From positions 1 to 32,164 of the forward strand of contig JABDJW010000252.1 of assembly GCA_013002375.1 (NCBI GenBank): a DNA stretch of 32,164 nucleotides, given 5' to 3'. This document shows, piece by piece, positions 9,913-26,112 of the stretch; the stretch's first letter is position 1, and every line of letters starts with the position of its first letter. This DNA comes from Acidimicrobiales bacterium. GTDB taxonomy: Bacteria > Actinomycetota > Acidimicrobiia > Acidimicrobiales > SHLQ01. The position numbers and the translations under genes were made by a program. Under the pieces are notes generated by a model. It did not search any database, had not been told where the DNA came from, and saw nothing but the letters and a program-made list of their open reading frames with translations.

Positions 9913-10050
9913 ATGTACGGAGTGATTCTCGCGGTCGTTTGGCATTTCTGGTTGGCGGTGGCTCTGGCCTTCCCCGCCGTGCTGCTGATCGTCGCCACCA
10001 TCGTTGGGTATGTCACGCAAGTGACCCGCACGAGGTATCCGAAGCAGTAG
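9913..10050 (+). CDS. 45-aa small membrane protein (absent from the ORF track)
   Basis: MYGVILAVVWHFWLAVALAFPAVLLIVATIVGYVTQVTRTRYPKQ*; TACGAT -10 (9900-9905) 7 nt upstream; stop 2 nt before the next GTG start. Confidence 0.72.
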   Translation: MYGVILAVVWHFWLAVALAFPAVLLIVATIVGYVTQVTRTRYPKQ

Positions 10051-10052
10051 CT

Positions 10053-11129
10053 GTGACCGAGCCTGTCGACTGGGATCTCGCCCGCCGCGTCGCCACCCGG
10101 GTGGCCGGCCGCGAGCCGTTCAGCGTCAGCTACCACGCGCACTCACTGCTGCCGGACTTCAACGAGTTCACCGCCCAGGCCGAGGAACTGGTCGCCGAAA
10201 CGACCGGCCTGCGATCGATGGCCGGCGACGCGCGGGCCCGGGTCGCCGACCGCGAACAATGGGTCGATGCCAACCTCGCCTCGTTTCAGCGCCTCTTGCG
10301 GCCCCTGCTCGATCGCATCAGCGAGAAGTCGAGCGGCAGCAGCCTGGCTGCCCCGATCGGCCGCCGGCTCACCGCGCTCGAACTCGGCGGCCTGCTCGGG
10401 TGGATGTCGACCCGAGTGCTCGGTCAATACGATCTGCTCGTCATCGAGGACGAGAACCCCGACGATCAGGACATCGTCTACTACGTGGGCCCGAACGTCC
10501 TGGCCCTCGAGAAGCGCTACGCCTTCCCGCCCCAGGAATTCCGGCTTTGGCTCGCGCTGCACGAGGTCACCCATCGGGCCCAGTTCACTGGCATCCCCTG
10601 GATGCGCGAGCACTTCCTGGGCCTCGTCAACCAAACCCTCGATGCCGTCGATCCCGATCCGCAACGCTTCCTCGATGGCCTGAAGCGCATGGTCGAGATC
10701 AAGAAGGCGGGCGGTGACCCGCTGGCCGACGGTGGCATCGCCGCGTTGCTGGCCAGCGAGGAACAGCGTGAGATCCTCGATCAAATCGCCGGGCTGATGA
10801 GCCTGCTCGAAGGCCATGGCGATGTCACCATGGATCGGGCCGGTGCCGATCAGATCCCCAGCGCCGAACGCTTCGGCCGGGTGTTGCGCGATCGCCGCTC
10901 CTCCACCAAGGGCCTGATGAAACTGTTCCAGCGGATCGTCGGGATCGACGCCAAGATCCAGCAGTACGCCCAGGGTGAGCACTTCATCGAGATCGTCGAA
11001 AAGGCCGGCGGAACCGAGCTGCTCGATCAGGCCTGGATCGGCCCGGAGATGTTGCCCTCCATCCAGGAGATCCGCGACCCCGAGCTGTGGATCACCCGAA
11101 TGCAGCCGGTCGAGGCCCAACCGGCGTAA
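10053..11129 (+). CDS. Zinc-dependent metalloprotease, DUF2342 family
   Basis: GTG start VTEPVDWDLA; RVLGQYD, LHEVTHRAQF (HExxH) and MSLLEGH; usual position upstream of tilS. Confidence 0.9.
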   Translation: MTEPVDWDLARRVATRVAGREPFSVSYHAHSLLPDFNEFTAQAEELVAETTGLRSMAGDARARVADREQWVDANLASFQRLLRPLLDRISEKSSGSSLAAPIGRRLTALELGGLLGWMSTRVLGQYDLLVIEDENPDDQDIVYYVGPNVLALEKRYAFPPQEFRLWLALHEVTHRAQFTGIPWMREHFLGLVNQTLDAVDPDPQRFLDGLKRMVEIKKAGGDPLADGGIAALLASEEQREILDQIAGLMSLLEGHGDVTMDRAGADQIPSAERFGRVLRDRRSSTKGLMKLFQRIVGIDAKIQQYAQGEHFIEIVEKAGGTELLDQAWIGPEMLPSIQEIRDPELWITRMQPVEAQPA

Positions 11130-11148
11130 GGCCGCCGGTGAGCGCCCG

Positions 11149-12138
11149 GTGATCTCCTCCGCTCTCGAACGGTGCACGTTCCCCGCGGCCGGCTCGCCGC
11201 TGGCCTGCGCAGTGTCGGGAGGTGCCGACTCGCTGGCGATGTTGGCCTTGGCCGCTGCGGCGGGATGCAGGATCACCGTCTGGCACATCGATCACGGACA
11301 GCGGCCCGACGGTCCTGCTGAAGCGGCCCTGGTCGAAGCCGCGGCGGCTCGCTACGGAGCGGCGTTCGAGGCTCGATCCGTCGCCGTGCCCGACGGCCCG
11401 AACCTCGAGGCGCGGCTCCGGCGGGCCCGGTACGAGGCGTTGCCCGGGGTGGTTGCGGTGGGCCATACCGCAGACGATCAGGTCGAGACCCTGCTGTTGA
11501 ACATGATGCGCGGCGCCGGCCCTGACGGCTTGAGCCCGATGGCGGGCCTCGTGGGGGCGGTGGGTCCCGACGGCGTGGAGGGAGTGCAGGTCTGCGCCGA
11601 CGGTTCGACGCGTCCGATCGAGCGGCTGCGGCCCATCCTGGCCCTCCGCCGACGCGACACCGAGGCGATCTGCGCGGCAGAGGGATTGGACTTTGCCAAC
11701 GATCCGACCAACGCCGATCCCCGCTTCCGGCGCAACCGGGTGCGGCACGAGCTCCTGCCGCTGCTGGCCGACATCTTCGAACGCGATCCGGTACCGGTGC
11801 TGTTGCGCATGATCGAGCAACAGCGCGAGCTGGCCCAGGCCTTGCACGAGCGCACCGATGGGCTCGACCTCGCCGATGCCAAGGTCGTCGCGGCGCTGCC
11901 AGCCGCGATCGCCACGAGCGCGGTACGTCGGTGGTTGGTCCGGCAGGACATCCGGTTGCTCGATGGATTGAACGCCGCCGCGCTCGAACGGGTCGTGGCT
12001 GTCGCCCGAGGTGACGCGGTGGCGACCGAACTCGAAGGCGGCTTCCGCGTCGAACGTTCGAAGCAGCGGCTCCGTTTGATCGGCCCGTCCACGGATTCGG
12101 ATGCGCCGCCGGACCGAGCCGGTCCCGAATCGGGGTAG
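11149..12138 (+). CDS. tilS: tRNA(Ile)-lysidine synthetase
   Basis: PP-loop AVSGGADS, HIDHG, GHTADDQVETLL and DPTN...RRNRVRH; start approximate (GTG 11149). Confidence 0.92.
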   Translation: MISSALERCTFPAAGSPLACAVSGGADSLAMLALAAAAGCRITVWHIDHGQRPDGPAEAALVEAAAARYGAAFEARSVAVPDGPNLEARLRRARYEALPGVVAVGHTADDQVETLLLNMMRGAGPDGLSPMAGLVGAVGPDGVEGVQVCADGSTRPIERLRPILALRRRDTEAICAAEGLDFANDPTNADPRFRRNRVRHELLPLLADIFERDPVPVLLRMIEQQRELAQALHERTDGLDLADAKVVAALPAAIATSAVRRWLVRQDIRLLDGLNAAALERVVAVARGDAVATELEGGFRVERSKQRLRLIGPSTDSDAPPDRAGPESG

Positions 12139-12208
12139 GCTCGCCCCTGTTTGTCGGCCGGGCTCGTCCGGGCCGGCCTGTCGTGGCGGAGCCTCAAAGG
12201 AACCGATC

Positions 12209-12754
12209 TTGTCCAACGAATACGACCTGGCCGAGTGCCAGGAAGTTGTGGTCAGCGCCGAACGGTTGCAGCGGCGGATCACCGAACTCGGTGCCCAGAT
12301 CACCGCCGACTATCAGGGTCGGCCCCCGCTGCTGGTCGGCGTGCTCAAGGGCGCCTTCATGTTCATGAGCGACCTCGCCCGAGCCATCGAGCTCCCGGTC
12401 GAGTTCGACTTCATGGCGGTGGCTTCGTACGGCAACGCGACCAAGACCAGCGGCGTGGTGCGCATCGTCAAGGATCTCGACATCGACCTGGGCGGCCGTG
12501 ATGTCCTGCTCGTCGAGGACATCATCGACAGCGGGCTCACCCTGAAGTACCTGCGGACGAACCTGCTGGCCCGCCAGCCGGCCAGCCTCGAGGTCTGCGC
12601 GCTGCTGGTGCGGGAGGGGCTGCAGGAGAGCGATCCCGATCTCAAGTACGTCGGCTTCCACATCCCGCCGGATTTCGTGGTCGGGTACGGGCTCGACGTG
12701 GCCGAACGATTCCGCAACCTGCCCGACATCCGTCGTTTCACCGGCACCGCCTAG
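12209..12754 (+). CDS. hpt: Hypoxanthine phosphoribosyltransferase
   Basis: RBS AAAGGA before TTG 12209; VGVLKGAFMF, PRPP motif VLLVEDIIDSGLT and FVVGYGLD. Confidence 0.96.
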   Translation: MSNEYDLAECQEVVVSAERLQRRITELGAQITADYQGRPPLLVGVLKGAFMFMSDLARAIELPVEFDFMAVASYGNATKTSGVVRIVKDLDIDLGGRDVLLVEDIIDSGLTLKYLRTNLLARQPASLEVCALLVREGLQESDPDLKYVGFHIPPDFVVGYGLDVAERFRNLPDIRRFTGTA

Positions 12755-12785
12755 CCAAACGGCGCCCTATCGGGCCGGGTGCGGC

Positions 12786-12811
12786 ATCAAGTCCCCGCCA
12801 ATTCGGTCGAT
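12786..12811 (+). promoter_or_regulatory. Possible FliA/WhiG-like promoter upstream of ftsH
   Basis: ATCA-N16-GTCGAT (equivalently TCAAG-N14-GTCGAT); a TAGGAT housekeeping -10 is also present at 12855-12860. Confidence 0.3.
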
Positions 12812-12869
12812 GGGAAGCGGCCGAGTCGCGGGTTCGCAGGACCTCGGCAAGCGATAGGATTGAGGCAAC

Positions 12870-14807
12870 GTGAAACGACTGAACCGTAGTCTGGTCATCT
12901 GGGCGCTCTTGGTGCTGTTGCTCGGCGTGCTCGCCGGATCGATCTGGCGCGGCGGCGATGACGCGGAAGAGCTGTTGCTCAGCGAGTTCCGGGCCCGAAT
13001 CGCAGCCGAAGAGGTCGAAACCGCCACCTTCCACGATCGCGACAGCTTCGTCGACGGCGAGCTCAGCGACGGCACCAGGTACACGGTCGCCTACCTCGAG
13101 GAACAAGGCGATGAACTCATCGCTGCCGTCGAGGAAGCCGGCGTCCAGGAGATCGAAGTCGATCAGCAGAGCGAGTCGTTCTGGGTCAGCCTCCTCCTGA
13201 ACCTGCTGCCGATCGTGTTCCTCGTCGCCGTGTTCCTGTTCTTCATCAACCAGATGCAGGGCGGCGGCCGTGGCGTCATGCAATTCGGCAAGGCCAAGAC
13301 GCGCCAGATGTCGAAGGACCAGCCCAAGGTCACGTTCGCCGACGTCGCCGGCTCCGACGAAGCGGTCGAGGAGCTGCGCGAAATCAAGGACTTCCTCGAA
13401 GCACCCGGCAAGTTTCATGCCATCGGCGCCAAGATCCCCAAGGGGGTGCTGCTCTACGGCCCTCCCGGCACCGGCAAGACCCTGCTGGCCCGAGCGGTCG
13501 CAGGCGAAGCGGGTGTTCCGTTCTTCACGATCTCGGGTTCCGACTTCGTCGAGATGTTCGTCGGTGTCGGTGCGAGCCGGGTTCGCGATTTGTTCGAACA
13601 GGCCAAGGCCGCGGCGCCTTCGATCATTTTCGTCGACGAGATCGATGCCGTCGGGCGCCATCGCGGTGCCGGTCTCGGCGGCGGCCACGACGAACGCGAG
13701 CAGACCCTCAACCAGCTGTTGGTCGAGATGGATGGCTTCGACGTCACCAGCGGCGTCATCTTGATCGCTGCGACCAACCGTCCCGACATCCTTGATCCCG
13801 CCCTGCTGCGCCCAGGTCGCTTCGATCGTCAGATCGTGGTCGATCGGCCCGATCTCGAAGGCCGGAAGGCCATCGTCGAGGTCCATCGCAAGGGCAAGCC
13901 CCTGCTCGAAGAGGTCTCGAGCGAGGTCATCGCCCGCCGCACTCCCGGCTTCACCGGCGCCGACCTGGCCAACCTGATGAACGAAGCCGCCCTGCTGGCG
14001 GCTCGGATGGACGAGCAACAGATCAGCGCGTCGCACATCGATGCCGCGATCGATCGTGTCATCGCCGGCCCGGAACGCAAGGGCAAGCTGATGACCGACA
14101 AGCTCAAGCACGTCATTGCGTACCACGAGGCCGGGCACGCGCTCGTCGGTCATGTGCTGCCCAACACCGACCCGATCCACAAGATCACGATCATTCCCCG
14201 CGGCCGAGCGTTGGGCCTGACCTTGGCGCTGCCGACCGAGGACACCTACCTCGTCAGCCGAGCCGCCTATCGCGATCAGATGGCGATGATGCTGGGCGGA
14301 CGCACCGCGGAGGAAATCATTTTCGGCGAACCGACCACCGGCGCGGCCGACGACATCAAACGGGCGACCGGCATCGCCCGCTCCATGGTCACCGAATACG
14401 GCATGAGCGACGCGCTCGGCCCCCAGCAGTTCGGCGAGCCCGAAGGTGAAGTCTTCCTGGGCAAGACCCAAGGGCATCGCCAGAACTACTCCGATGACAT
14501 CGCATCCCAGATCGACGCCGAGGTGCGGAGCCTGATCGACAGTGCCCATGACGAGGCCCGCGAGGTGCTCTCCCTCCACCGCAGCACGCTCGACCTCCTG
14601 GCCGAGCGGTTGATCGAACACGAGACGCTCGACGACGATGCGCTCAACGCGCTGTGGGACGAAGTCGACCTACCCAAGGGTGGGGCTGATGCCGAGTCCG
14701 ATGCGGCGAGCCCCGCGACCCCGTCAGCCAACTCTCCCGAGTTGACCAATCCGAACGCGGCGCAACCGACGTCGTTCGAGCCGCCGCGCGGCGGCGAAGA
14801 CGACTAA
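12870..14807 (+). CDS. ftsH: ATP-dependent zinc metalloprotease FtsH
   Basis: Two TM segments, [19 protein letters not shown] motif [19 protein letters not shown] and HEAGH. Confidence 0.98.
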
Positions 14808-14846
14808 AACAATAGCGCTGGATCGCGACACAAAAGGGCGCTCTCG

Positions 14847-15485
14847 TTGAGTAACAACTCGTCCCACTCCACCGACGACGACATTGATGGCGCGCGGCTG
14901 AAGGCCATCCACGCCTCCGAGGTTGATCAACCCCGCATCGAGGCCGCGGTGCGCGAGATCCTCGCCGCCATCGGCGAGGACCCGAATCGCGATGGTCTGC
15001 TCGATACGCCGGGCCGGGTGGCTCGCATGTACGCCGAAACTTGCTCGGGACTGCACATCGACCCGGCCCAGCATCTGCACAAGACCTTCGATGTCGACCA
15101 CGACGAGATGGTCATGGTGCGTGACATTCCGCTCTATTCGTTGTGCGAGCACCATCTGTTGCCCTTCATCGGCTCGGCCCACTGCGCGTACATCCCCCAG
15201 AAGAACGGGCGCATCACCGGCCTGTCGAAGCTGGCCCGGCTGGTCGACGGCTACTCCCGGCGCCCCCAAGTCCAGGAGCGTCTGACGCAACAGATCGCCG
15301 ATGCGATCGATGAGATGCTCGAACCGCAGGGCGTGCTGGTGGTGATCGAGGCCGAGCACCTCTGTATGTCGATGCGGGGCGTCCGCAAACCCGGCTCCTC
15401 GACCGTCACGTCCTCGGTCAAGGGCATCTTCCGCGAGCAGAGCTCCACTCGCTCCGAGGCCATGCGCTTCCTCGAGCGTCGCTGA
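14847..15485 (+). CDS. folE: GTP cyclohydrolase I
   Basis: [35 protein letters not shown] and HLCMSMRG; start approximate. Confidence 0.97.
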
Positions 15486-15550
15486 ACGCCGGTCACTCGC
15501 CGGCGACCGTTCTGCTTCACGGTTTGGGAATCGCTACTAGGGTGGCGGTC

Positions 15551-16375
15551 GTGCCTTTGTCCTTCCCGCTGCGCCCCCGGACGACGGGCCCTGTCGTCAT
15601 GGGAATCGTGAACGTCACACCGGATTCATTCTCCGATGGTGGCCGTTTTCTCGATGCCGATGCCGCGATCGAGCACGGGCGAGCCATGCTGGCCGACGGG
15701 GCGGCGTGGCTCGACGTCGGCGGTGAATCGAGCCGGCCGGGCGCCGAGCCGGTCTCGAGCGAAATCGAGCTCGAACGGGTGATTCCCGTGGTCGAAGCAC
15801 TGGCCAACGACGGCCTGGTCTCGATCGACACCGTCAAGCCCGAGGTCGCCCGGGCCGCCGTGGCCGCAGGCGCCACCATGATCAACGACATCTCCGCATC
15901 CTTGGCGTCGGTGGCGGGCGAGTTGGGCGTGGCCTGGGTCGCCATGCACTGTCAGGGAACCCCCCGCACGATGCAGGATGCGCCCCGCTACGACGACGTC
16001 GTCGCCGAAGTCACCGCCGATCTGGCCGCCGCCATCGAGGCCGGCCAGGCGGCCGGCGTGTCGCAGATCTACGTCGATCCCGGCATTGGCTTCGGCAAGA
16101 CCACGCAGCACAATCTGACGCTGTTGGCGCACCTCGATCGGTTCGTCGCGCTCGGCTTTCCGGTTCTGGTCGGTGCCAGCCGGAAGCGATTCATCGGTGA
16201 AATCCACAGTCGAGCCGACCATCGATCAGAACCGGGATCCCAACTGGCCGCGATCGACGATCGTCTGGAAGGGTCATTGGCCGTCGCCACCTGGGCCAGC
16301 GCGCAGGGGGCGGCAATCGTCCGGGTCCACGACGTGCGAGCAACCGTGCAAGCGGTGCGCGTCGTGGCCGCTTGA
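15551..16375 (+). CDS. folP: Dihydropteroate synthase
   Basis: MGIVNVTPDSFSDGG, DVGGESSRPG, DPGIGFGK, SRKRF and RVHDV; start chosen because TAGGGT -10 lies 7 nt before GTG 15551. Confidence 0.96.
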   Translation: MPLSFPLRPRTTGPVVMGIVNVTPDSFSDGGRFLDADAAIEHGRAMLADGAAWLDVGGESSRPGAEPVSSEIELERVIPVVEALANDGLVSIDTVKPEVARAAVAAGATMINDISASLASVAGELGVAWVAMHCQGTPRTMQDAPRYDDVVAEVTADLAAAIEAGQAAGVSQIYVDPGIGFGKTTQHNLTLLAHLDRFVALGFPVLVGASRKRFIGEIHSRADHRSEPGSQLAAIDDRLEGSLAVATWASAQGAAIVRVHDVRATVQAVRVVAA

Positions 16376-16384
16376 GAGGAACAC

Positions 16385-16903
16385 ATGAAGGGTAAGTGGG
16401 CCCGGGGTATCGAGCCTCGGAACTTCACATGGATCATCAAGGATCGACTGGCCGTCTGCGAGCGGCCGGGCGGCTACGGCGCGAACCATCGCAAGGTCCG
16501 GCGCCAGGAGGAGATCATCTGGATCCGTGAAAACGCCTTCGACATCGTCTTCTCGTTGATCCAGTCGCCCCACAACCTCCACAACTACGACGCCCTCGGC
16601 GTGGCCTATACCCATCAACCGTTCAACGGTCCCGAAGACGGCGTCGAACGACTCGATCAGCTCTACAAGAACCTTCGCACGCTGCTCGACAACGGAGCCA
16701 AGGTCCTCGTCCATCGCGAAGAGCTGGCCGATCACGTCTCGGGAATGCTGGCCGGGTACCTGTTGTGGGCCGGCTTCATCGAGACCGGCCCCGACGTCAT
16801 CGTCGCGATCGAGCAATTGGTCTCGCGACCGCTCGGTCCCGTCGGCCGCGAGATCGTGTCGCTCGCCATCCGGGCGCGCGACGGGGCCGAGGCCTCTTCG
16901 TGA
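16385..16903 (+). CDS. Hypothetical protein with PTP/dual-specificity-phosphatase-like fold lacking the catalytic Cys
   Basis: RBS GAGAGGA; NFTWII..LAVCERPG resembles the N-terminus of small DSPs; the P-loop position reads KVLVHREELADHV instead of VxVHCxxGxxR. Confidence 0.75.
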   Translation: MKGKWARGIEPRNFTWIIKDRLAVCERPGGYGANHRKVRRQEEIIWIRENAFDIVFSLIQSPHNLHNYDALGVAYTHQPFNGPEDGVERLDQLYKNLRTLLDNGAKVLVHREELADHVSGMLAGYLLWAGFIETGPDVIVAIEQLVSRPLGPVGREIVSLAIRARDGAEASS

Positions 16904-17262
16904 CCGACGTCCTCGAATTGCGCGGGCTGCGGGTCATGGCGCTGTGTGGGGCGTTACCCGAAGAGCGCGAGCGGGCCCAACCCTTCGAACTCGACATCGA
17001 CGTGCACACCGACCTTTCGGTGGCCGGCAAATCGGACAACCTCGACGACACGCTCGACTACGGCAGCCTCACCGAGGCGATCTCGATCGTCCTCCATGGC
17101 GAGCAATACACCTTGCTCGAACGCATGGCCGAGCGGGTGACCGAGATCGTCCTCGACGCTCCGACGGTCGAGAAGGTCGTCGTGTCGGTCCACAAGCTCC
17201 GGCCGCCGGTGTCCGAGCACCTGGCGACCGCGGGTGTCCGGATCGAGCGCACCCGCTCCTAG
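16900..17262 (+). CDS. folB: Dihydroneopterin aldolase
   Basis: GTGA overlap with the upstream gene; EERERAQPFELD, SDNLDDTLDY, LLERMAE and VHKLRPP. Confidence 0.93.
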   Translation: MTDVLELRGLRVMALCGALPEERERAQPFELDIDVHTDLSVAGKSDNLDDTLDYGSLTEAISIVLHGEQYTLLERMAERVTEIVLDAPTVEKVVVSVHKLRPPVSEHLATAGVRIERTRS

Positions 17263-17274
17263 GGCGAGCACGCC

Positions 17275-18459
17275 ATGGTCACGACCCGCGCCCTGCTCGG
17301 CCTCGGTTCGAACCTGGGTGACCGTTGGAAGCTGTTACGCGACGCGGTTGGATCGATTCCCGATGTCGTCGCGGTGTCATCGGTGTACGAGAGCGACCCG
17401 GTCGGTGGGCCCGAGCAGGGGCAGTTCCTGAATCTGGTCGTACGGCTCGAGACCGAGCGGTCGGCCCGGGAGCTACTCGAGGTGTGTCAGCGTTGCGAAG
17501 AAGCCGCGGAGCGGGTGCGGGTCGAGCGCTGGGGGCCGCGCACGCTCGACGTCGACGTGCTGTGGGTCGATGGCGAGACGGTGGACGAGCCGGATCTGAT
17601 CGTGCCGCATCCCAGGACCTTCGAACGGGCCTTCGTGGTATTGCCGCTTCGCGACGTCGCACCCGATGTCGCGCCCGACGACTGGGAACACCCCAGCGAC
17701 CAACAACTCCGGCGGGTCGGAACGCTCTTCGCCGGCCCCGACGAGGGCCGGTCGGTCGCCATCGTCGGCCCCGGCCGCGCCGGTCAGGCCATGGGCCAGG
17801 CCATCGAGCAGATCGGGTGGGCGTCGGTGCGTTACTTCGGCCGCAATGACGATCTCGACGGCATCCGATCCGACGAGCTCGTGATCATCGCCACGCCCGA
17901 TGCCGCGGTGGCCGACGTGGCCACCGCGATCCCGGAGGTCGAGGATCGTCCGGTTCTGCACGTGGCCGGTTCCCTCGGGGTCGACGTGCTCGCCGGTCAT
18001 CGCCGCGCCGCCGCTCTCCACCCGGTGCTGGCGATGCCCACGCCCGCCATCGGTGCGCACCGGCTGCTCGATGACGCCTGGTTCGCGATCTGCGGCGATC
18101 GAGCGGCCGACGAACTCGCGGTCGCCATGGGGGGACGATCGTTCTGGGTCGAGGACCACGATCGCGCCGCGTACCACGCCGCCGCAGTGGTGGCGTCGAA
18201 CCACGTCACTGCGCTGCTCGGCCAGGTGTGGCGCATCACCGGGTCGATCGTCGTGCCGCGCGAGCCCTTCTTCCGCCTGGCCCGGAGTGCAATCGACAAC
18301 GTCGCGACGCTGGGGCCACAGAAGGCCCTGACCGGCCCGGTGGCACGGGGCGATCACGAGACCATCGAACGCCACCGGGCCGCGCTCGACCCGAGTGAGG
18401 TCGAGCTGTACGACGCGCTCGTGGCCGCCGCGCTTCGGGTCAAGGACAACCGGCCATGA
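17275..18459 (+). CDS. folK: Fusion of FolK (HPPK) and Rossmann-like/DUF2520 (PanG-type ketopantoate reductase)
   Basis: N-half GLGSNLGDR, FLN, RWGPRTLDVD and LIVPHPR; C-half IVGPGRAG, IATPD, HVAGS, LHP, YHAAAVVASNH and ALTGPVARGD; single uninterrupted frame. Confidence 0.88.
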   Translation: MVTTRALLGLGSNLGDRWKLLRDAVGSIPDVVAVSSVYESDPVGGPEQGQFLNLVVRLETERSARELLEVCQRCEEAAERVRVERWGPRTLDVDVLWVDGETVDEPDLIVPHPRTFERAFVVLPLRDVAPDVAPDDWEHPSDQQLRRVGTLFAGPDEGRSVAIVGPGRAGQAMGQAIEQIGWASVRYFGRNDDLDGIRSDELVIIATPDAAVADVATAIPEVEDRPVLHVAGSLGVDVLAGHRRAAALHPVLAMPTPAIGAHRLLDDAWFAICGDRAADELAVAMGGRSFWVEDHDRAAYHAAAVVASNHVTALLGQVWRITGSIVVPREPFFRLARSAIDNVATLGPQKALTGPVARGDHETIERHRAALDPSEVELYDALVAAALRVKDNRP

Positions 18460-19319
18460 CCGCCGAGACCACCATCGTCACCAGTATCGCCGAGCTTCGC
18501 GCCACCCTCGATGCCGAGCGGGCCGCCGGTCGTTCGGTGGGCTTCGTGCCGACGATGGGGTACCTCCACGACGGCCACGGATCCCTCATCGAGGCCGCCG
18601 CGGCGGCCAACGACGTCACCTTCGTCTCGATCTTCGTCAATCCGTTGCAGTTTGCGCCCGGCGAAGACCTCGAGGCGTATCCCCGTGATCTCGAGGCCGA
18701 CGCGGCGTTGTCCGTCGCGGCGGGCGCCGCGCTGATTTTCGCCCCGTCGGTGGAGGAGATGTACCCGGAACCGATTCTGACCAGCGTGCATGTGAACACG
18801 GTGTCCGATCCGCTCGAGGGACGGCACCGGCCCACGCACTTCGACGGCGTGTCGACGGTGGTGAGCAAACTCTTCGCCATCGCCGGACCGTGCCGCGCCT
18901 ATTTCGGCGAGAAGGACTGGCAACAACTGGCGATCGTGCGGCGCATGGCCTCGGATCTCTCGTTCCCGGTGGAGGTCGTGGGTTGTCCGATCGTCCGCGA
19001 GCCCGACGGTCTGGCGATGTCGAGCCGGAACGTCTACCTGACCTCGGAGGAGCGCACCCAGGCCCTCGTGTTGAACCAGGCGCTGCGGCACGGCATCGAG
19101 CTGATCGAAGCCGGCGAGCGTGATCCCGACATCGTCGAGCGGGTGGTCAGCGCCATGATCGAGACGCAGCCGGCGGCCGAGATCGACTATGTCGGTGTGG
19201 TCGATGCAATGACGTTGCTCGAGCCGGCCCCGCTGGCCGGCGAAGTCCGGCTGTTGACGGCAACCCGGTTCGGCAAGGCCCGCTTGCTCGACAACATGGG
19301 CGTGGTGGTACCGGACTGA
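18456..19319 (+). CDS. panC: Pantoate-beta-alanine ligase
   Basis: FVPTMGYLHDGH, SIFVNPLQF, RPTHFDGV, FGEKDWQQ, GLAMSSRN and RLLDN; ATGA overlap with the upstream fusion. Confidence 0.97.
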   Translation: MTAETTIVTSIAELRATLDAERAAGRSVGFVPTMGYLHDGHGSLIEAAAAANDVTFVSIFVNPLQFAPGEDLEAYPRDLEADAALSVAAGAALIFAPSVEEMYPEPILTSVHVNTVSDPLEGRHRPTHFDGVSTVVSKLFAIAGPCRAYFGEKDWQQLAIVRRMASDLSFPVEVVGCPIVREPDGLAMSSRNVYLTSEERTQALVLNQALRHGIELIEAGERDPDIVERVVSAMIETQPAAEIDYVGVVDAMTLLEPAPLAGEVRLLTATRFGKARLLDNMGVVVPD

Positions 19320-19374
19320 CCGCTTGGGGGCGTTCCCAGGCGGCAAGCTCCTCGGCTCGCCGTACGATCGTGGC

Positions 19375-20196
19375 ATGAACATGCCAGCAGCCAATTGGTA
19401 TCCCGACCCCTCCGGGAAGCACGAGCACCGGTACTGGGACGGTGCCGGGTGGACCGAGCACGTCAGCGACCACGGTCGGCAGTCGATCGATCCGATCGGC
19501 TCGGCCAAACCGGTGCCGACCACCAACGACGATTCCGATCGGATTCGGCGCCAGGTGCAAGAGCGAGCTCGGGTGGACGTTGCGGAGGCCGGCGGGGGCA
19601 CGCTGTTCACCGAGCCGGTTCTGGTGGTCAATCAAAAGGCCAAGCTGATCGAAATTCACAACGAGTACGCGGTGTTCGATCAGCACGGCAGCCAGGTCGC
19701 CGCCGTTCGGCAGGTGGGGCAGAGCGCGGCCAAGAAGGTGCTGCGGGTGCTCACCAGCCTCGATCAGTTCATGACGCACAGCCTGCAGATCGTCGACATG
19801 GGCGGGAACGTGCTGCTGACGGTCACCCGGCCGGCCAAGTTCTTCAAGTCGACGGTCGAGGTCGGCGGGCCGCACGGTGAGACGATCGGTCGAGTGGTGC
19901 AACAGAACATGTTCGGCAAGATCCGATTCGCCTTTGAGGTCGACGGCGAAACGATCGGCTCGATGCATGCGGAGAACTGGCGGGCTTGGAACTTCAGCCT
20001 GCAGGACCGCTCGGGCACCGAGGTTGCTCGCATCACCAAGACGTGGGAGGGGTTGGCCAAGACGTTGTTCACGACCGCCGACAACTACGTGCTGCAGATC
20101 GACCAGCCCGTCGCAGGCCCGCTCCGAACGTTGGTGGTGGCGTCAGCCTTGGTGGTCGATACCGCGTTGAAGCAGGACCAGCGGGGATTCGGCTAG
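19375..20196 (+). CDS. DUF2510 + phospholipid scramblase / LURP-one-like protein
   Basis: N-terminal ANWYPDPSGKHEHRYWDGAGWT (DUF2510); LFTEPVLVVNQKAKLIE...TTADNYV tubby/scramblase-like domain; TACGAT -10 6 nt upstream. Confidence 0.85.
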   Translation: MNMPAANWYPDPSGKHEHRYWDGAGWTEHVSDHGRQSIDPIGSAKPVPTTNDDSDRIRRQVQERARVDVAEAGGGTLFTEPVLVVNQKAKLIEIHNEYAVFDQHGSQVAAVRQVGQSAAKKVLRVLTSLDQFMTHSLQIVDMGGNVLLTVTRPAKFFKSTVEVGGPHGETIGRVVQQNMFGKIRFAFEVDGETIGSMHAENWRAWNFSLQDRSGTEVARITKTWEGLAKTLFTTADNYVLQIDQPVAGPLRTLVVASALVVDTALKQDQRGFG

Positions 20197-20223
20197 GCGT
20201 TGTTCCCTGGGTTGGGACTGGCG

Positions 20224-20862
20224 CTAGGGCTTGATGAGGGCGGCCCGCATCACGACCGGATCCTCGCCCTGGAATTCGGCCAGGCCGTTGCCCTCGTGGA
20301 AGAAACGGAGCAGATAGCCGCGATCGATCTCTTGGTGGATGAACGCCTGGGCGTCGATGTGCCGGCGGAAGTGGTCGGTGACGAACGCATGTCGGCCGAC
20401 CTCCTGGCCCTTGCCGTACAAGGGATCGAGGATGGTGCGAGCCTCGATCAGGAACTGACCCCCCGAGGGCAGCATGTTCCAGACCGATTGGACCAGCCGC
20501 TCTTCGGCTTCGTCGTCGATCGAGTGCAACGTGAATCGTGAGTAGACGGTGTCGATCCCAGGGAAGTCGGCCGGGTCCAGCCGGGTGAAGTCGCCAACCT
20601 CGAATCGGACGCGCTCGGGGTTGCGGGCCCCCTCGACGCGCTCGCGGCACAACTCGATGGCCTGGCTCGACTGATCGACACCGACGAGTTGGTGCCCGTG
20701 CTCGAAGAAGAACGCGGCATCGCGGCCATTGCCCGGCCCGAGCTCGAGGATGGACGAGGCATCGTGCAGGAGGTGCTCGCGGGCGAACACCGCGAATGGG
20801 CTCGGATACGAGACGGCGGCTCGATGCTCGTAGAACTCGTTCCAGAAACCGGTGTCAGCCAT
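20224..20862 (-). CDS. Class I SAM-dependent methyltransferase
   Basis: ILELGPGNGRD, VGVDQS, GDF and VYSRFTLHSI; alternative start at 20874. Confidence 0.88.
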   Translation of the reverse strand: MADTGFWNEFYEHRAAVSYPSPFAVFAREHLLHDASSILELGPGNGRDAAFFFEHGHQLVGVDQSSQAIELCRERVEGARNPERVRFEVGDFTRLDPADFPGIDTVYSRFTLHSIDDEAEERLVQSVWNMLPSGGQFLIEARTILDPLYGKGQEVGRHAFVTDHFRRHIDAQAFIHQEIDRGYLLRFFHEGNGLAEFQGEDPVVMRAALIKP

Positions 20863-20931
20863 GGCGGGTCGCATTCTGTCGATGTCCGAACCATGCTACC
20901 GGTCACCGACCCCGCGTCCTGTCATCGTCAG

Positions 20932-20984
20932 TACCCTCGGGTCGCGCCGGTCGCAATACCCTCGGGCCGCGCCGGTCGCAATAC
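20932..20984. repeat. 25-bp tandem duplication in the nadC promoter region
   Basis: TACCCTCGGGTCGCGCCGGTCGCAA (20932-20956), TACCCTCGGGCCGCGCCGGTCGCAA (20957-20981), then TAC; one mismatch. Confidence 0.9.
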
Positions 20985-20994
20985 ACTGCCCCTC

Positions 20995-21864
20995 GTGAGT
21001 CGATTGTTGCATCCACCCCGACTCGACGTGCGGGCAGCCGTCGAACGGGCCTTGGCGGAAGACCTCTATCCGTTCGGTGATCTCTCGGCCACGTTGTTGC
21101 CCGAGGGCGCCGCAGCCATCGCCAAGTTCCGGGTGCGGGAGGCCGGCGTGTTGGCCGGCACCGCCTGTGCTGACGAGACGTTTGCCCAGGTCGACCCGGC
21201 GTTGCCCATCACCTGGCTCTCCCAAGAGGGTGATCGAGTCCAGCCCGACCAGGTCATCGCGACCGTCGAAGGCTCGCTCGAATCGATACTGATCGCCGAG
21301 CGCACCGCGCTCAACTTCATGGGCCACCTGTCGGGCATCGCCAGCCGGGTGGCGCAATTCGTCGACGCCGCCGCCGGCGGGTGCCGGGTCTGGGACACCC
21401 GCAAGACCACTCCAGGGCTTCGATCGCTGGAAAAGGCAGCGGTACGAGCGGGCGGTGCATGGAATCATCGCGGCAACCTGTCCGACTGGATCATGTTGAA
21501 GGACAACCACTTGATGGGCGTGTCGATCACCGACGGCGTGGCCATGGCGCGCGATCGCTGGCCGGGCCGCACCGTGCACATCGAGTGCGACCGCGAGGCG
21601 CAGGTTCGTGAGGCCCTGAACGCCAAGGCCGATGCACTCTTGCTCGACAACATGAGCCCGGCCGAAGCCAAAGCCTGTGTCGACCTCGTCGACGAGCACG
21701 AGGCGGCCACCGGCCACCGGCCGCTGGTGGAGGCATCGGGTGGCATCACGCTCGACACCATCGCCGGCTACGCCAAGACCGGTGTCGATCTGGTTTCCAG
21801 CAGCTCGTTCATCATGTCCGCCGCGGTGCTCGACATCGGGCTCGACATCGACCCGGTCACGTAG
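20995..21864 (+). CDS. nadC: Nicotinate-nucleotide pyrophosphorylase (carboxylating)
   Basis: ALAEDL, AERTALN, DTRKTTPGLR, NHR, MLKDNH, LLDNM and EASGGITL; TACACT -10 7 nt before GTG 20995. Confidence 0.96.
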   Translation: MSRLLHPPRLDVRAAVERALAEDLYPFGDLSATLLPEGAAAIAKFRVREAGVLAGTACADETFAQVDPALPITWLSQEGDRVQPDQVIATVEGSLESILIAERTALNFMGHLSGIASRVAQFVDAAAGGCRVWDTRKTTPGLRSLEKAAVRAGGAWNHRGNLSDWIMLKDNHLMGVSITDGVAMARDRWPGRTVHIECDREAQVREALNAKADALLLDNMSPAEAKACVDLVDEHEAATGHRPLVEASGGITLDTIAGYAKTGVDLVSSSSFIMSAAVLDIGLDIDPVT

Positions 21865-22656
21865 ATGCTGTTCGCGATCGATGTCGGCAACACCAATACC
21901 GTGTTCGGGCTGTACGACGCCAACAGCGATGTCGGCGACGGGGCCGAGCGGGGTCTTGTCGATCATTGGCGGATCGCGACCGATTCGAATCGGATGGCCG
22001 ACGAACACGCCGTCCTGGTCCGCAATTTCCTGACATCGGCCGGCTACGACCTCGAAGGCGAGATCGACGGCATCGCCATCTGCTCGGGTGTACCGCGCGT
22101 CACCGTTGCCCTTCGTGACATGATCGCCCGGACATTTCGGGTCGAACCGATCGTCGTCGGTCCCGGGGTCAAGACCGGCATGCCGATCCAATACGAGAAC
22201 CCGCGCGAGGTTGGGGCCGATCGCATTGCCAACAGCGTGGCCGCGTTCGATCTCTTCGGTGGCCCGACCGTGGTGGTCGACTTCGGCACCGGTAACAACT
22301 TCGACGTCATCAGCGCCGATGGCGAGTTCCTCGGTGGTGCGATCGCTCCCGGTATCGAGATCAGCCTCGATGCCCTGTTCGGCCGAGCGGCGGCCTTGGG
22401 CGCGGTCGAAATGACCGAACCCCGTAGTGTCATCGGCAAGAACACGGTCGAGGCGCTGCAGTCCGGCGCCGTCTACGGCTTTGCGGCGCAGGTCGACGGT
22501 ATGCTCGGTCGCTTCCGGGATGAACTGGGCGAAGTCACCGTCGTCGCGACCGGTGGCCTCGCAGACCTCATCGCGCCGGTGAGCAAATCGATCGAATACG
22601 TTGAGCCGTTCCTGACCCTGCATGGCTTGCGCTTGGTGCACGCCAAGAACACGTAG
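21865..22656 (+). CDS. coaX: Type III pantothenate kinase
   Basis: [32 protein letters not shown] and LTLHGL; starts immediately after the nadC stop. Confidence 0.96.
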
Positions 22657-22688
22657 CCCTGACCCCTCGGCCTAGCGAGTACCTGACT

Positions 22689-24095
22689 GTGACCGACCTG
22701 CCCTATCGATATGAAGTCACCGCCACGGCGGCCGCGCTCAACGAGAGCCACGCCGAGCTGGGCGATGGCGACGAGACCGGCCTTTTCGTCACCGTCGCCG
22801 GCCGGCTCATGCTTCGGCGCGGCCAGGGAAAGCTGGTGTTCGGCGACCTGCAGGATCGCACCGGCCGCATCCAGCTTTTTGCGTCGGCCAAGGTGTGCCC
22901 CGACTTCCACGAATTCGCCGCGCTGAACCTCGGCGACTGGCTCGGCGTGACCGGCGAGATCATCAAGACCAAGCGGGGCGAACTCTCCATCCGGGTCACC
23001 GCGTGGGATGTCCTGGCCCGGTGGGGTGGCACCTTCCCGGACAAGTGGCATGGCCTGACCGACACCGACGCTCGCTACCGGCAGCGATACATCGATCTGT
23101 GGGTCAACGATGGTTCTCGTCAGGCCTTCGTCGACCGAAGCCGCATGGTATCGGCCACTCGTCGCTGGCTCGAGGAGCGTGATTTCCTCGAGGTCGAGAC
23201 GCCGATCCTGCACCCGATTCCCGGTGGCGCCCTGGCTCGCCCGTTCGAGACGCATCACAATGCGCTCGACACCGAGATGTTCCTACGGATCGCGCCGGAG
23301 TTGTATCTGAAGCGCCTCACCGTCGGCGGCTTCGACAAGGTCTACGAGATCGGGCGGGTGTTCCGGAACGAGGGCATGTCGACTCGGCACAATCCGGAGT
23401 TCACCATGCTTGAGCTCTACTGGGCGTACGCCGACTACCACGACGGCATGGAGCTCACCGAGCAGCTGATCGCCCACCTGGCCGAGCAGATCACCGGCTC
23501 GACGACGATCACCTACGACGGCCGGGAGGTCGATCTCAGCACCCCGTGGGAACGACGAACCATGACCGATCTCATCAGCGAGCATGTCCAGCTCGACCTG
23601 TCGATCGAGATGGACCGAGACGAGTTGGCCAAGATCGCCGAGGACGTCGGCGTCCAGGTCAAGGGCTACTACGGCCCCGGCAAGCTGATTCTGGAGATCT
23701 ACGAGAAGACGGTCGAAGCCCACCTGTGGGGTCCGGTGTTCGTGACCGACTACCCCAAGGAGGTCTCGCCGCTGTCGCGTGTGCACCGGGACAAGCCGGG
23801 CTTCACCGAGCGATTCGAGGCCATCGTGGCCGGCCGTGAGCTCTGCAACGGCTTCAGCGAGCTCATCGATCCGGTTGAACAGCTCGCCCGGTTCGAAGCC
23901 CAGGCCGCCGACCGAGATGCCGGCGATGCTGAAGCGATGCCGATCGACCGCGACTACGTCCGGGCCCTCGAGCATGGCCTCCCGCCGACTTTTGGTCTGG
24001 GCATCGGCATCGACCGACTGGTCATGTTGCTGACCGACACCCAGACCATCCGCGACGTCGTGCTGTTTCCCACCCTCCGCCCCGAGCAGGAGTAG
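22689..24095 (+). CDS. lysS: Lysine--tRNA ligase (class II)
   Basis: OB-fold [47 protein letters not shown] and GLGIGIDRL. Confidence 0.97.
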
Positions 24096-24099
24096 CTCG

Positions 24100-26112
24100 T
24101 CAGCCGGCTTCGGAGGCCTGCCACGCGAACGTGACCGCGATCGGCGGGTGATCGCTGAGCGGCTGACCGGCCTCATCGACGAAGACGTCGGTTTCCGGCG
24201 ACCATGCGACCGGTGTCAGGGTGACGGCGTCACTGCTTCGGAACAGGAATCGATCGATCTCGTCGGCGTCGTCGCACCCCAGCGCGTCGCAGGCGCTGGT
24301 GAGGCCGGTCGCGGCGAACAACGTGTCGTACAAGGGGGCATCGAGTGGGTCCGACGGCCGCAGATTGAAATCGCCACCGACGATGACGGCTCGGCCGGAC
24401 GAGTTCGCGTTGATGTACGCGGCCAGTTCGGCCAGGTCCTGGGCCTTCAACGCTTCGTCGGCGGCATCACCTCCGGCTTCGACATGGAGGTTGTACACAT
24501 CGACTTCGGTTCCCCCGCCGAGGCCGAGCACACTCTTGCTGAAGCCCTTGAAGGCCAGGCAGTCGCTGGCCCCGTCCAGGACACCGTTGCACTCGGTCCA
24601 TGCCACCCGTTCGACCGGGTCGCTCCAGAACCTGGTGAACCGGTTGAGACCATCGGCCAGCTGCGCGGTCGGCCGGCTGGGATCGGTGCCCAGCGGCTGT
24701 TCGGCCGGCACCGACTGGAAGGAGTGGGTCGAGGCTGCGGCCAGAATCTCGTGGTACACCCGCAACGGGTCGAGACCGTTGGGTTCGGGGGTCTGCCAGG
24801 ATTCCTGGAGCAGGACCAGCTCGTAGTCATTCAGAAGCGGGCCGATGATCGGGGTGTTGGCCTCCGGGTCGCTGCCCGACAACGGCGCCGGCAAGCCGGC
24901 GACGTTGTAGGTGAGGGCGGTGAACTCGCCACCCGGCGGCGGCAGGAAGCCGTCGCATTCGCCGGCGGTGAGCAGCGAGACCAGCTGGACCGAGCCGGCC
25001 AGGAGGCTGTTGGCCGCCGCGGTGTCGAACGAACTCGGGCCGTTGTTCACGATCGCTTCGATCTGCGCGCCGACGGTCAGGAAGGTCTGTTGTTGAGCCG
25101 GAGTGAAGCGGTCGAGATCGGCCAGGCCCAGCTGCACGACGGTGTTGATCGCGACCGCGTCCTCGTAGACGGCGAGGGGCGCCGCCGTGAGCGAGGGGGT
25201 GACCGAGCCGTTGGTCAGCTGGAGGGCGAGATCCAGTGCGATGGCGGTCTGTTGCTGGAGCTTGGCGAAATCGACGATGCCGAGCTCGTCATCGGTGGTG
25301 TGGTAGCAGGGCCCGGTGCTGTCGGAGAAGAACACCGACGGAACGCCCGCGTTGATCAGGGTGGCGTAGTCGCTTCGGAACTGGCCGAAGATCGAGCTGA
25401 CCCGCTGGGTCTGCAGTGGCTCGGCACCGATCGCGGCGTCGACGGCCGCCTCGAAGGGCGGCCCACCGGTCTCGGCGGCGATCGCAAAGCTGGTCGTGCG
25501 CAGACTCGGCAGCAGGTTCGAGCCCAGGATGTCGAAGTTGATGTAGGCGACGGTGTCTTCGAGCGGTACGAGCGGGTCGGCGACGTACTGCTCGGAACCC
25601 ACCAACCCGTCCTCCTCGCTGTCCCAGAAGGCGAAGACCACCGATCGGCGCGGCGCGTTGTCCGGCTCGGCCAACGCCCGGGCGATCTCGAGAGCCGCGG
25701 CCACCCCCGCCGCGTTGTCGGTCGCTCCGTTGCAGATGACGTCGGTGGGATCGGCGGTGCTGCAGGATGCGAGGTGGTCGTAGTGCGCGCCGATCATCAC
25801 GTACTCGTCGGCGAGGTCGGTGCCGGGCATGATCGCGATGACGTTCGTGCCCGGCGCCCCGCCGCCGGTGTAGGTCTGGAGATAAGGCGTGGCCGAGCCG
25901 GTGTTGGCACCGACCGTGAAGTCATCGAGCACGCTGATCAGGTACTGCTGGGCGAGTTCCGAGCCGTCCGATCCGTTGTTGCGGCCGGCCAACGCGTCGC
26001 TGGAGAGATAGGCGACGTCGAACCAGGCGCACGACGACGCCAGCAACATCAGGGCCAGCAGGCCGGCGATCCGGCGCGGCGATACCGGCCCGTTGTTGTT
26101 CCTCTTGCTCAT
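24100..26112 (-). CDS. Putative lipoprotein: M28 metallopeptidase fused to an endonuclease/exonuclease/phosphatase (EEP) domain
   Basis: Signal peptide ending LLASSC; M28 motifs GAHYDH, GATDNAAG, DSEEDGLVGS, INFD and YHTTDD; EEP motifs TYNV, LQE, NLH, GGDFN, IDR and SDH. Confidence 0.85.
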   Translation of the reverse strand: MSKRNNNGPVSPRRIAGLLALMLLASSCAWFDVAYLSSDALAGRNNGSDGSELAQQYLISVLDDFTVGANTGSATPYLQTYTGGGAPGTNVIAIMPGTDLADEYVMIGAHYDHLASCSTADPTDVICNGATDNAAGVAAALEIARALAEPDNAPRRSVVFAFWDSEEDGLVGSEQYVADPLVPLEDTVAYINFDILGSNLLPSLRTTSFAIAAETGGPPFEAAVDAAIGAEPLQTQRVSSIFGQFRSDYATLINAGVPSVFFSDSTGPCYHTTDDELGIVDFAKLQQQTAIALDLALQLTNGSVTPSLTAAPLAVYEDAVAINTVVQLGLADLDRFTPAQQQTFLTVGAQIEAIVNNGPSSFDTAAANSLLAGSVQLVSLLTAGECDGFLPPPGGEFTALTYNVAGLPAPLSGSDPEANTPIIGPLLNDYELVLLQESWQTPEPNGLDPLRVYHEILAAASTHSFQSVPAEQPLGTDPSRPTAQLADGLNRFTRFWSDPVERVAWTECNGVLDGASDCLAFKGFSKSVLGLGGGTEVDVYNLHVEAGGDAADEALKAQDLAELAAYINANSSGRAVIVGGDFNLRPSDPLDAPLYDTLFAATGLTSACDALGCDDADEIDRFLFRSSDAVTLTPVAWSPETDVFVDEAGQPLSDHPPIAVTFAWQASEAG

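Follow-up and report, generated by a model that had tools for sequence, protein, structure and literature searches.

Does a gene that lies between folP and folB have to serve folate synthesis? The question is raised by a stretch of 32,164 nucleotides from an Acidimicrobiales bacterium (assembly GCA_013002375.1, contig JABDJW010000252.1, positions 1 to 32,164; hereafter the window), in which the plus-strand open reading frame (ORF) at 16385..16903, here called X, encodes a protein of 172 residues between the genes for dihydropteroate synthase (DHPS, FolP) and dihydroneopterin aldolase (FolB). A preliminary description of this DNA saw in X a Cys-less relative of the small dual-specificity phosphatases (DSPs) and proposed that it is either a pterin (pyro)phosphatase supplying the missing step between FolE and FolB or a pseudophosphatase that acts as a scaffold or regulator of folate synthesis. 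We find that X and the pterin branch are uncoupled both ways: X is kept in genomes that have neither FolB nor HPPK, and one genome, G046, has the fol genes without X. Genomes of these two kinds argue against a pterin (pyro)phosphatase specific to folate synthesis; from the second proposal the pseudophosphatase survives, whereas its tie to folate synthesis is not supported, at any rate as its only function. We favor a model, to which we give about an even chance of being right, in which X is a pseudophosphatase-type housekeeping protein that binds phosphate or polyanions independently of de novo folate synthesis. The family that X founds, class-wide in Acidimicrobiia and so far undescribed, consists of small stand-alone proteins with the DSP fold.

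Distribution of X and of the pterin branch

X is a genuine gene and not a chance reading frame, because 5022 database proteins match it at E ≤ 1e-3 and the mean column identity in its alignment (36 members) is 55%. The best 120 of these 5022 homologues are 58-100% identical to X across 91-100% of the query and are named "hypothetical protein" only. The family is compact: when its profile was searched exhaustively against 1.84 billion cluster representatives, only 530 clusters were recovered at the threshold of E ≤ 1e-3. Scans of X against Pfam and NCBIfam gave nothing above threshold and no model for the family. Its single Pfam match, to Tc-R-P (PF22785), is weak (14.1 bits against a cut-off of 27, E = 0.069), so that by the Pfam rule X is not a member; PF22784 was not listed, and a match to PER beta-lactamase at E = 0.26 was discarded as noise. 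A literature search surfaced no paper on the family, which has no name to search by, so this result does not imply that it is unpublished.

The distribution of X was surveyed in one even draw of 201 Acidimicrobiia genomes (G000 included) with a completeness of at least 80%, each of which was searched for X, FolB and HPPK; G197, which is flagged as unpublished, counts as one unit in these three tallies, and no claim hangs on it alone. X is a single-copy gene in 197 of the 201 genomes and is present in 172 of the 173 that are at least 90% complete, as well as in 33 of the 36 genomes of family f19, which are about 1 Mb in size. A second draw, of 301 genomes from the phylum, contained 23 members of the class and 278 others, and X was found in 22 of the former versus two of the latter. 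Both out-of-class carriers, G323 and G383 of family f58, give weak partial matches (1.3e-21 and 2.3e-17), and the named GTDB records that hold X belong to Acidimicrobiia, Acidimicrobiales, Microthrixaceae, Iamiaceae, Aquihabitans and the like. X is a core gene of the class and is under strong selection.

The two out-of-class relatives (L092 6711.., plus strand, in G323, and L093 5641-6213, minus strand, in G383) have 30-39% identity and keep the pattern ERPGG..SHR..RR..E..WW. They have a Cys after the His of the phosphate-binding loop (P-loop; VLVHCDR..EW), but no Arg six residues on. The ORFs beside them, away from fol genes, look by eye like a thioesterase and a sigma factor.

In the same class sample of 201, FolB was found in 185 genomes and HPPK in 188. 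X occurs without either of them in nine genomes, of which seven are 97-100% complete (G008, G042, G074, G090, G102, G106 and G193, from genera g3, g7 and g8 of family f3); the other two, G068 and G152, belong to family f19 and are 88% and 80% complete. FolE was searched for in G008, G106 and G102 and was found in none of the three. G008 is 100% complete in two contigs, and its sole Pterin_bind match is a methyltetrahydrofolate:corrinoid methyltransferase (NF005719, 9e-107), not DHPS. X scores 243-255 bits in the f3 genomes that lack FolB and HPPK versus 246-257 bits in f3 genomes that have the pathway, and in the former it retains all of the conserved residues described below. Genus g7 holds both states, with two genomes that have FolB and HPPK and two that do not, and X is in all four. 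The opposite case is G046 (99% complete, one contig), where the genes run tilS-hpt-folE-folP-folB-folK-panC without X. Three further genomes, from family f19 and 82-88% complete, are without X, FolB and HPPK together, a pattern that one missing contig would give. G046 is the sole near-complete genome of the same taxonomic order without X, and at G046:C1:1992000-2008000 (L106) folB and folK come right after its folP.

The order of genes around X was tallied in the 80 best GTDB loci that hold it. A conserved folP-X-folB order, which the preliminary description had asked about, is present in 63 of the 80, with FolP as the nearest upstream gene in 65 and FolB as the nearest downstream gene in 66. 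Linkage to fol genes holds in most of these loci but not in all: X directly follows tilS, hpt or ftsH in seven, two and three of the 80 loci, where folE and folP are gone, and nine of these 12 have no fol gene in the flanks on either side, as is the case for ten of the 80 when L075, which starts at X, is included. Ten additional loci were taken from other families, within the class or beyond it. folP adjoins X in all eight in-class loci fetched from families f23, f25, f41 and f4, and seven of these (f23, f25 and f41) read tilS-hpt-ftsH-folP-X-folK-panC, with folB and folE elsewhere. Family f3 keeps the tilS-X pair with unrelated genes downstream, and in one of its genomes, G014, X stays beside tilS while folB-folK lies about 1.5 Mb away; the f3 fol genes that stand apart from tilS may be a replacement set. 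The link between X and folP is old but has repeatedly been broken, and it is X that remains in place. The order tilS-hpt-ftsH ... folP-folB-folK ... lysS is presumably shared with Bacillus and with other Actinobacteria; if so, X inherits its neighbors, and its position consequently says little about its function.

Two further observations concern the fol genes of these relatives. At L102 (G014:C1:2317000-2335000) and L104 (G094:C1:2312000-2330000), folB-folK stands beside a divergent folP on the opposite strand whose product is 32% identical to the FolP of the window. Two or three HPPK matches per genome were seen in all 18 sampled genomes of f23 and f25 and in a few of f41, f28 and f24; in these multi-HPPK genomes one HPPK directly follows X, and folB is on another contig or far off.

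Predicted fold and degenerate active site

An AlphaFold2 model of X, built from the 36-sequence alignment, has a mean predicted local distance difference test score (pLDDT) of 86.7 and a predicted template modeling (TM) score of 0.83, with a soft spot at residues 31-40 (mean pLDDT 56). Foldseek relates this model to DSPs with a probability of 1.00 and TM scores of 0.6-0.78, and the matches at 1.00 include Cdc14, DUSP23/VHZ, KAP, Tk-PTP, a baculovirus RNA 5'-phosphatase, PTEN and others. VIA-align returned 50 entries that match over residues 5-172 of the model with Z scores of 16.5-14.2, every one of them of the protein tyrosine phosphatase (PTP)/DSP fold, and among them the pseudophosphatase STYX (2r0b) at Z 14.3. 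The family profile finds the nearest solved DSP, 25xa, in the PDB at E = 1.6e-5, and Pfam gave no NUDIX match in X at E ≤ 1. X is thus predicted to have the DSP/PTP alpha/beta fold that the preliminary description had guessed from short motifs. These motifs can all be read in the translation: NFTWI and LAVCERPGG (the NFxWI..LA..RPG pattern), VLVH, HREELADH where HCX5R would stand, and the basic insert HRKVRRQEE.

Residue tallies over 282 family members describe what has become of the P-loop. His is at position 110 in 278 members, and position 111, the site of the nucleophile, holds Q in 115, R in 73, G in 43, A in 17, H in 14, S in 7 and M in 4, so that Cys is absent from the seven commonest residues; the window protein has R111. 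Position 112 is E or D, position 113 is E in 244, position 115 is G in 210 and position 116 is D in 262. At position 117, the site of the P-loop Arg, R is found in 180 members, H in 45 and other residues in 57, and the window protein has H117. The family consensus is accordingly H-[QRG]-[ED]-E-L-G-D-R. The general-acid Asp of 25xa and Tk-PTP (in their "PD" motif) aligns with a variable column, in which the window protein has G82, within PFNGPED. The classical Cys-based mechanism has been lost, because neither the nucleophile Cys nor the general-acid Asp is kept at the aligned positions, while a His...Arg loop frame persists in about two thirds of the family. On the loss of Cys-based chemistry the position-111 tally and the alignment with 25xa agree with what had been claimed; the label "Cys-less" is right for the P-loop nucleophile but not for the whole protein, which keeps Cys25 in LAVCERPGG. 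Cys25 (C in 228 of the 282 members) was considered as a substitute nucleophile and rejected, as 52 members have Ser there.

Conservation is highest in residues 23-46, in the pattern A23-x2-E-R-P-G-G-x4-H-R-x2-R-R-x2-E-x2-W. Invariance was tallied in 98 sequences, which include one out-of-class relative (L093) and leave out the other (L092). Eleven residues of this segment (A23, E26, R27, G29, G30, H35, R36, R39, R40, E43 and W46) are invariant in all 98, as are H110 and R155; H63, H66 and H77 are present in 231-251 of the 282 members. The basic stretch of the segment is a six-residue insertion relative to 25xa. To judge from the topology of the fold, the loop of residues 23-46, the loop with PHNLHNY, the loop after strand 4 and the P-loop would share the face that carries the active site in true phosphatases.

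Binding protein, enzyme or partner

The model we favor envisions that the X family lost the Cys nucleophile and the general-acid Asp, retained the His of the P-loop together with, in about two thirds of its members, the Arg, and added an invariant Arg-rich insertion (H35, R36, R39 and R40) beside the former active site. Together, this P-loop cradle and the insertion would hold a phosphate-bearing or polyanionic ligand without Cys-based hydrolysis, and candidate ligands are a nucleotide, a nucleic acid, polyphosphate or a phosphoprotein. The role of X would be a housekeeping one, and its place between folP and folB, translationally coupled on both sides, would reflect inherited order within an old tilS-hpt-ftsH-fol-pan-coaX-lysS cluster and no dedicated pterin step. 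The fold, the missing catalytic residues, the distribution and the lack of coupling to the pterin branch are results of the analysis, whereas we infer ligand binding, the kind of ligand and the lack of catalysis.

The C-terminal tails that some members carry bear on the ligand. Lys/Ala/Pro-rich or KE-rich tails are found on X in several lineages (P0121, P0130, P0132, P0135 and P0271), and open frames of 452-479 residues surround X in all five genomes of genus g51. In G043 (L083 4440-5810, minus strand) X is followed by about 290 residues that are first KE-rich and then Lys-rich (P0271), and several long forms match the histone-H1-like model PF07382. Tails of this type are typical of polyanion-binding proteins in Actinobacteria, and they suggest, weakly, that X acts on or near nucleic acid or another polyanion. 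The genome of G043 has FolP and FolK; FolB and FolE were searched for there and not found.

Several points weigh against the binding model. The core domain of X is about charge-neutral, by a count of its translation, and is therefore no obvious nucleic-acid binder, and only a minority of members carry the basic tails. The window protein has His at the site of the P-loop Arg, which weakens a simple phosphate cradle for that member. Many of the conserved His, Glu, Asp and Arg residues (H35, H110, E26, E43, E113 and D116, together with H63, H66 and H77) would also fit a metal- or His-based enzyme. Finally, the adjacency to folP is deep, reaching into other orders of the class and into genomes with folB at another place, which allows for a folate-linked role wherever the pathway exists.

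Known proteins of the same fold help to place X. The small atypical DSPs 25xa, human DUSP23/VHZ (2img and 4erc) and archaeal Tk-PTP (5z5a) and SsoPTP (2i6i) share its single-domain architecture of about 150-170 residues and superpose with Z scores of 15-16 and a root-mean-square deviation of 2.4-2.9 over 141-146 residues at 15-20% identity; 25xa also shares the motifs NFxW, LAG/LAV..PG and VL[IV]H. Unlike these enzymes, which have HCxxGxxR, X has H-x-[ED]-E-L-G-D-[RH], lacks the nucleophile Cys and the general-acid Asp, and carries the six-residue Arg-rich insertion after the second strand. Human STYX offers a functional parallel to our model, in a class defined by function and not by descent: a DSP fold in which the nucleophile has been replaced, and which in X is under purifying selection. 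STYX keeps the P-loop Arg, as do most members of the X family (180 of 282). It is a eukaryotic protein that binds phosphoproteins, whereas X is bacterial, stand-alone and restricted to a class, and their 12% identity shows no specific sequence relationship. The nearest named families, the bacterial DSP-PTPase families PTP-SAK (PF22784), Tc-R-P (PF22785) and PTP-NADK (PF22741), came from a look-up by language model and structure, with a score of 0.93 and TM scores of 0.74-0.79.

Of the alternatives, the one that fares best, although we consider it unlikely, is that X catalyzes new chemistry on the PTP scaffold, as a hydrolase that depends on a metal or on His or as another kind of transferase, with a phosphorylated non-pterin housekeeping substrate such as a nucleotide, an alarmone, polyphosphate or the 5' end of RNA. 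The invariance of E26, R27, H35, R36, R39, R40, E43, H110 and R155 in the 98 sequences and the near-invariance of E113 and D116 speak for it, as polar conservation of this kind is commoner in enzymes than in scaffolds, and so does the fact that genomes of about 1 Mb still keep X as a single-copy core gene. The basic tails of some lineages and the RNA 5'-phosphatases among the Foldseek matches (1yn9, 4mbb and 4jmj) also count in its favor, but the Foldseek list spans every kind of DSP, so that these matches are unspecific. Moreover, position 111 is variable (Q, R, G, A or H) and thus offers no replacement nucleophile, H63, H66 and H77 are not universal, and we know of no Cys-independent catalytic DSP as a precedent.

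A bolder form of this idea, which we regard as improbable, would make X the first protein of the PTP/DSP fold to be catalytic without the Cys, with a predicted metal- or His-based site formed by E26, R27, H35, R36, R39, R40, H110, E113 and D116 that hydrolyzes a polyphosphate-bearing small molecule which the neighboring genes produce or consume. The predicted substrate would be pterin triphosphate where the pathway exists and GTP, (p)ppGpp or phosphoribosyl pyrophosphate everywhere. If true, this would explain both the linkage to folP and the retention of X in folate auxotrophs.

We judge it very improbable that X is a non-orthologous, possibly metal-dependent (pyro)phosphatase that converts dihydroneopterin triphosphate (DHNTP) or monophosphate (DHNMP) to dihydroneopterin for FolB. 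The idea has a sound background, since PMC1971073 describes the gene for DHNTP pyrophosphatase as missing in most genomes and attributes removal of the last phosphate to a non-specific phosphatase. The same paper places the Nudix enzyme FolQ in a folate cluster, folKEPQC of Lactococcus, a location that X resembles. The ribosome-binding site of X over the folP stop codon, its GTGA overlap with folB, the prevalence of the folP-X-folB order, the folP-X pairs in distant families, and a possible metal site formed by conserved His, Glu and Asp residues near the former active site are all compatible with such a role. However, the seven near-complete genomes that lack FolB and HPPK have a fully conserved X, and checks in some of them gave no FolE (three genomes) and no DHPS (one genome); G046 shows the reverse, with the pathway but no X; and in G014 X sits beside tilS, far from folB-folK. 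X has neither nucleophile nor general acid, its DSP fold is unrelated to the Nudix fold of NudB/FolQ, and its distribution is not that of the pterin branch. The step could also be covered from elsewhere in the genome. The statement that no such hydrolase is present holds for the window, where none of the 23 ORFs scanned is a Nudix gene, but not for the source genome, which has 13 Nudix matches, all on other contigs.

An equally slim chance attaches to X being a regulatory or scaffolding partner of a product of the cluster, DHPS (FolP) or, where the fol genes are gone, TilS or FtsH: its tight coupling to folP, with FolP upstream in 65 of 80 loci and in distant families, and the tilS-X pairs of family f3 and of seven of the 80 loci would fit, but X persists in G008 without DHPS, gene neighborhood alone is weak evidence for binding, and long FolP-X, TilS-X and X-FolB forms are rare, 129 (E ≤ 1e-10) versus 5022 stand-alone proteins (E ≤ 1e-3). 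These 129 proteins join X with Pterin_bind, FolB, HPPK or PP-loop domains, and almost all are singletons. In most of the FolP-X forms the FolP match ends at profile position 200-236 (approximately) of about 270, and 50-75 residues without a match separate it from X; only a few, P0304 for example, join X directly to a complete FolP. The long forms were rejected as Rosetta-stone evidence of fusion, because their pattern fits frameshifted gene calls. A predicted complex of FolP and X, run without controls, scored 0.01, 0.55 and 0.21 (median 0.21 against a mark of 0.32) and was used neither for nor against a partnership.

Whichever of these readings proves right, X is kept by almost the whole class, even in genomes of about 1 Mb, and has no name, Pfam model or proposed function, a gap in basic cell biology. 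Pseudophosphatases are well studied in eukaryotes, and the model we favor implies that they can also be core bacterial genes; if X is instead catalytic, it would represent new chemistry on a classic fold. For annotation pipelines our results are a caution: an operon place between folP and folB is no ground for naming X the missing dihydroneopterin phosphatase.

Genes around X in the window

The plus strand of the window reads tilS-hpt-ftsH-folE-folP-X-folB-folK/DUF2520-panC, with nadC, coaX and lysS further on (Table 1). Domain matches support the early assignment of folE, folP, folB and folK, and both signals that had been noted at the ends of X, its ribosome-binding site and its GTGA overlap with folB, are read directly in the sequence; the GAGG core of GAGAGGAA is spaced 5 nucleotides from the X ATG. 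A scan for promoters and terminators over 10500-24500 gave no promoter-like site and nine terminator-like sites against 6.5 expected. No terminator-like site falls on the plus strand between 13621 and 18715, which is compatible with a single transcript but is not evidence for one.

Table 1. Positions of X, its signals and motifs, and the neighboring genes in the window
Feature	Position	Strand	Description
tilS	10975..12138	+	PP-loop domain
hpt	ends 12754	+	Pribosyltran domain
ftsH	12870..14807	+	Label by eye from the translation and from tblastn matches in relatives
folE	14847..15485	+	GTP_cyclohydroI, 4.7e-77
folP (dihydropteroate synthase)	15524..16375	+	PF00809 Pterin_bind, 1.9e-79; DHPS equivalog TIGR01496, 1.7e-89; directly upstream of X
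Shine-Dalgarno-like GAGAGGAA	16374..16381	+	Overlaps the folP stop TGA, 16373-16375; read from the sequence
ORF X	16385..16903	+	172 residues, ATG start; stand-alone protein of predicted DSP/PTP fold with a degenerate catalytic motif
Residues 23-46 of X, AVCERPGGYGANHRKVRRQEEIIW	16451..16522	+	Most conserved segment; holds the family-specific basic insertion
HREELADH, residues 110-117 of X	16712..16735	+	Stands where the HCX5R P-loop would be; aligned with HCRAGYGR in 25xa
GTGA overlap	16900..16903	+	folB start GTG, 16900-16902, overlaps the X stop TGA, 16901-16903
folB (dihydroneopterin aldolase)	16900..17262	+	PF02152, 2.2e-30; Pfam match from residue 6; directly downstream of X
folK fused to Rossmann-like/DUF2520	17275..18459	+	394-residue ORF; HPPK 2.9e-35, DUF2520 4.9e-29
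panC	18456..19319	+	Pantoate_ligase, 4.6e-104

Three neighbors of X have features of their own. The folK fusion places HPPK at residues 8-130 and the Rossmann-like/DUF2520 part at residues 197-383 (approximately), and its end overlaps the start of panC by 4 nucleotides. The two halves seem, judging from tblastn segments, to be separate in some relatives and fused in others, and ketopantoate reduction (PanG) is a role associated with DUF2520 proteins, which would suit a neighbor of panC. About 150 nucleotides at the end of the Zincin_2 metallopeptidase ORF (9939-11129) are shared with the longest tilS ORF, which follows it and starts at 10975, and the true start of tilS probably lies further downstream, because the PP-loop domain begins only at residue 77. 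Just past panC, the ORF at 19324-20196 combines an N-terminal DUF2510 motif with a domain of the scramblase family (PF03803, 2.4e-20), a family that is unusual in bacteria.

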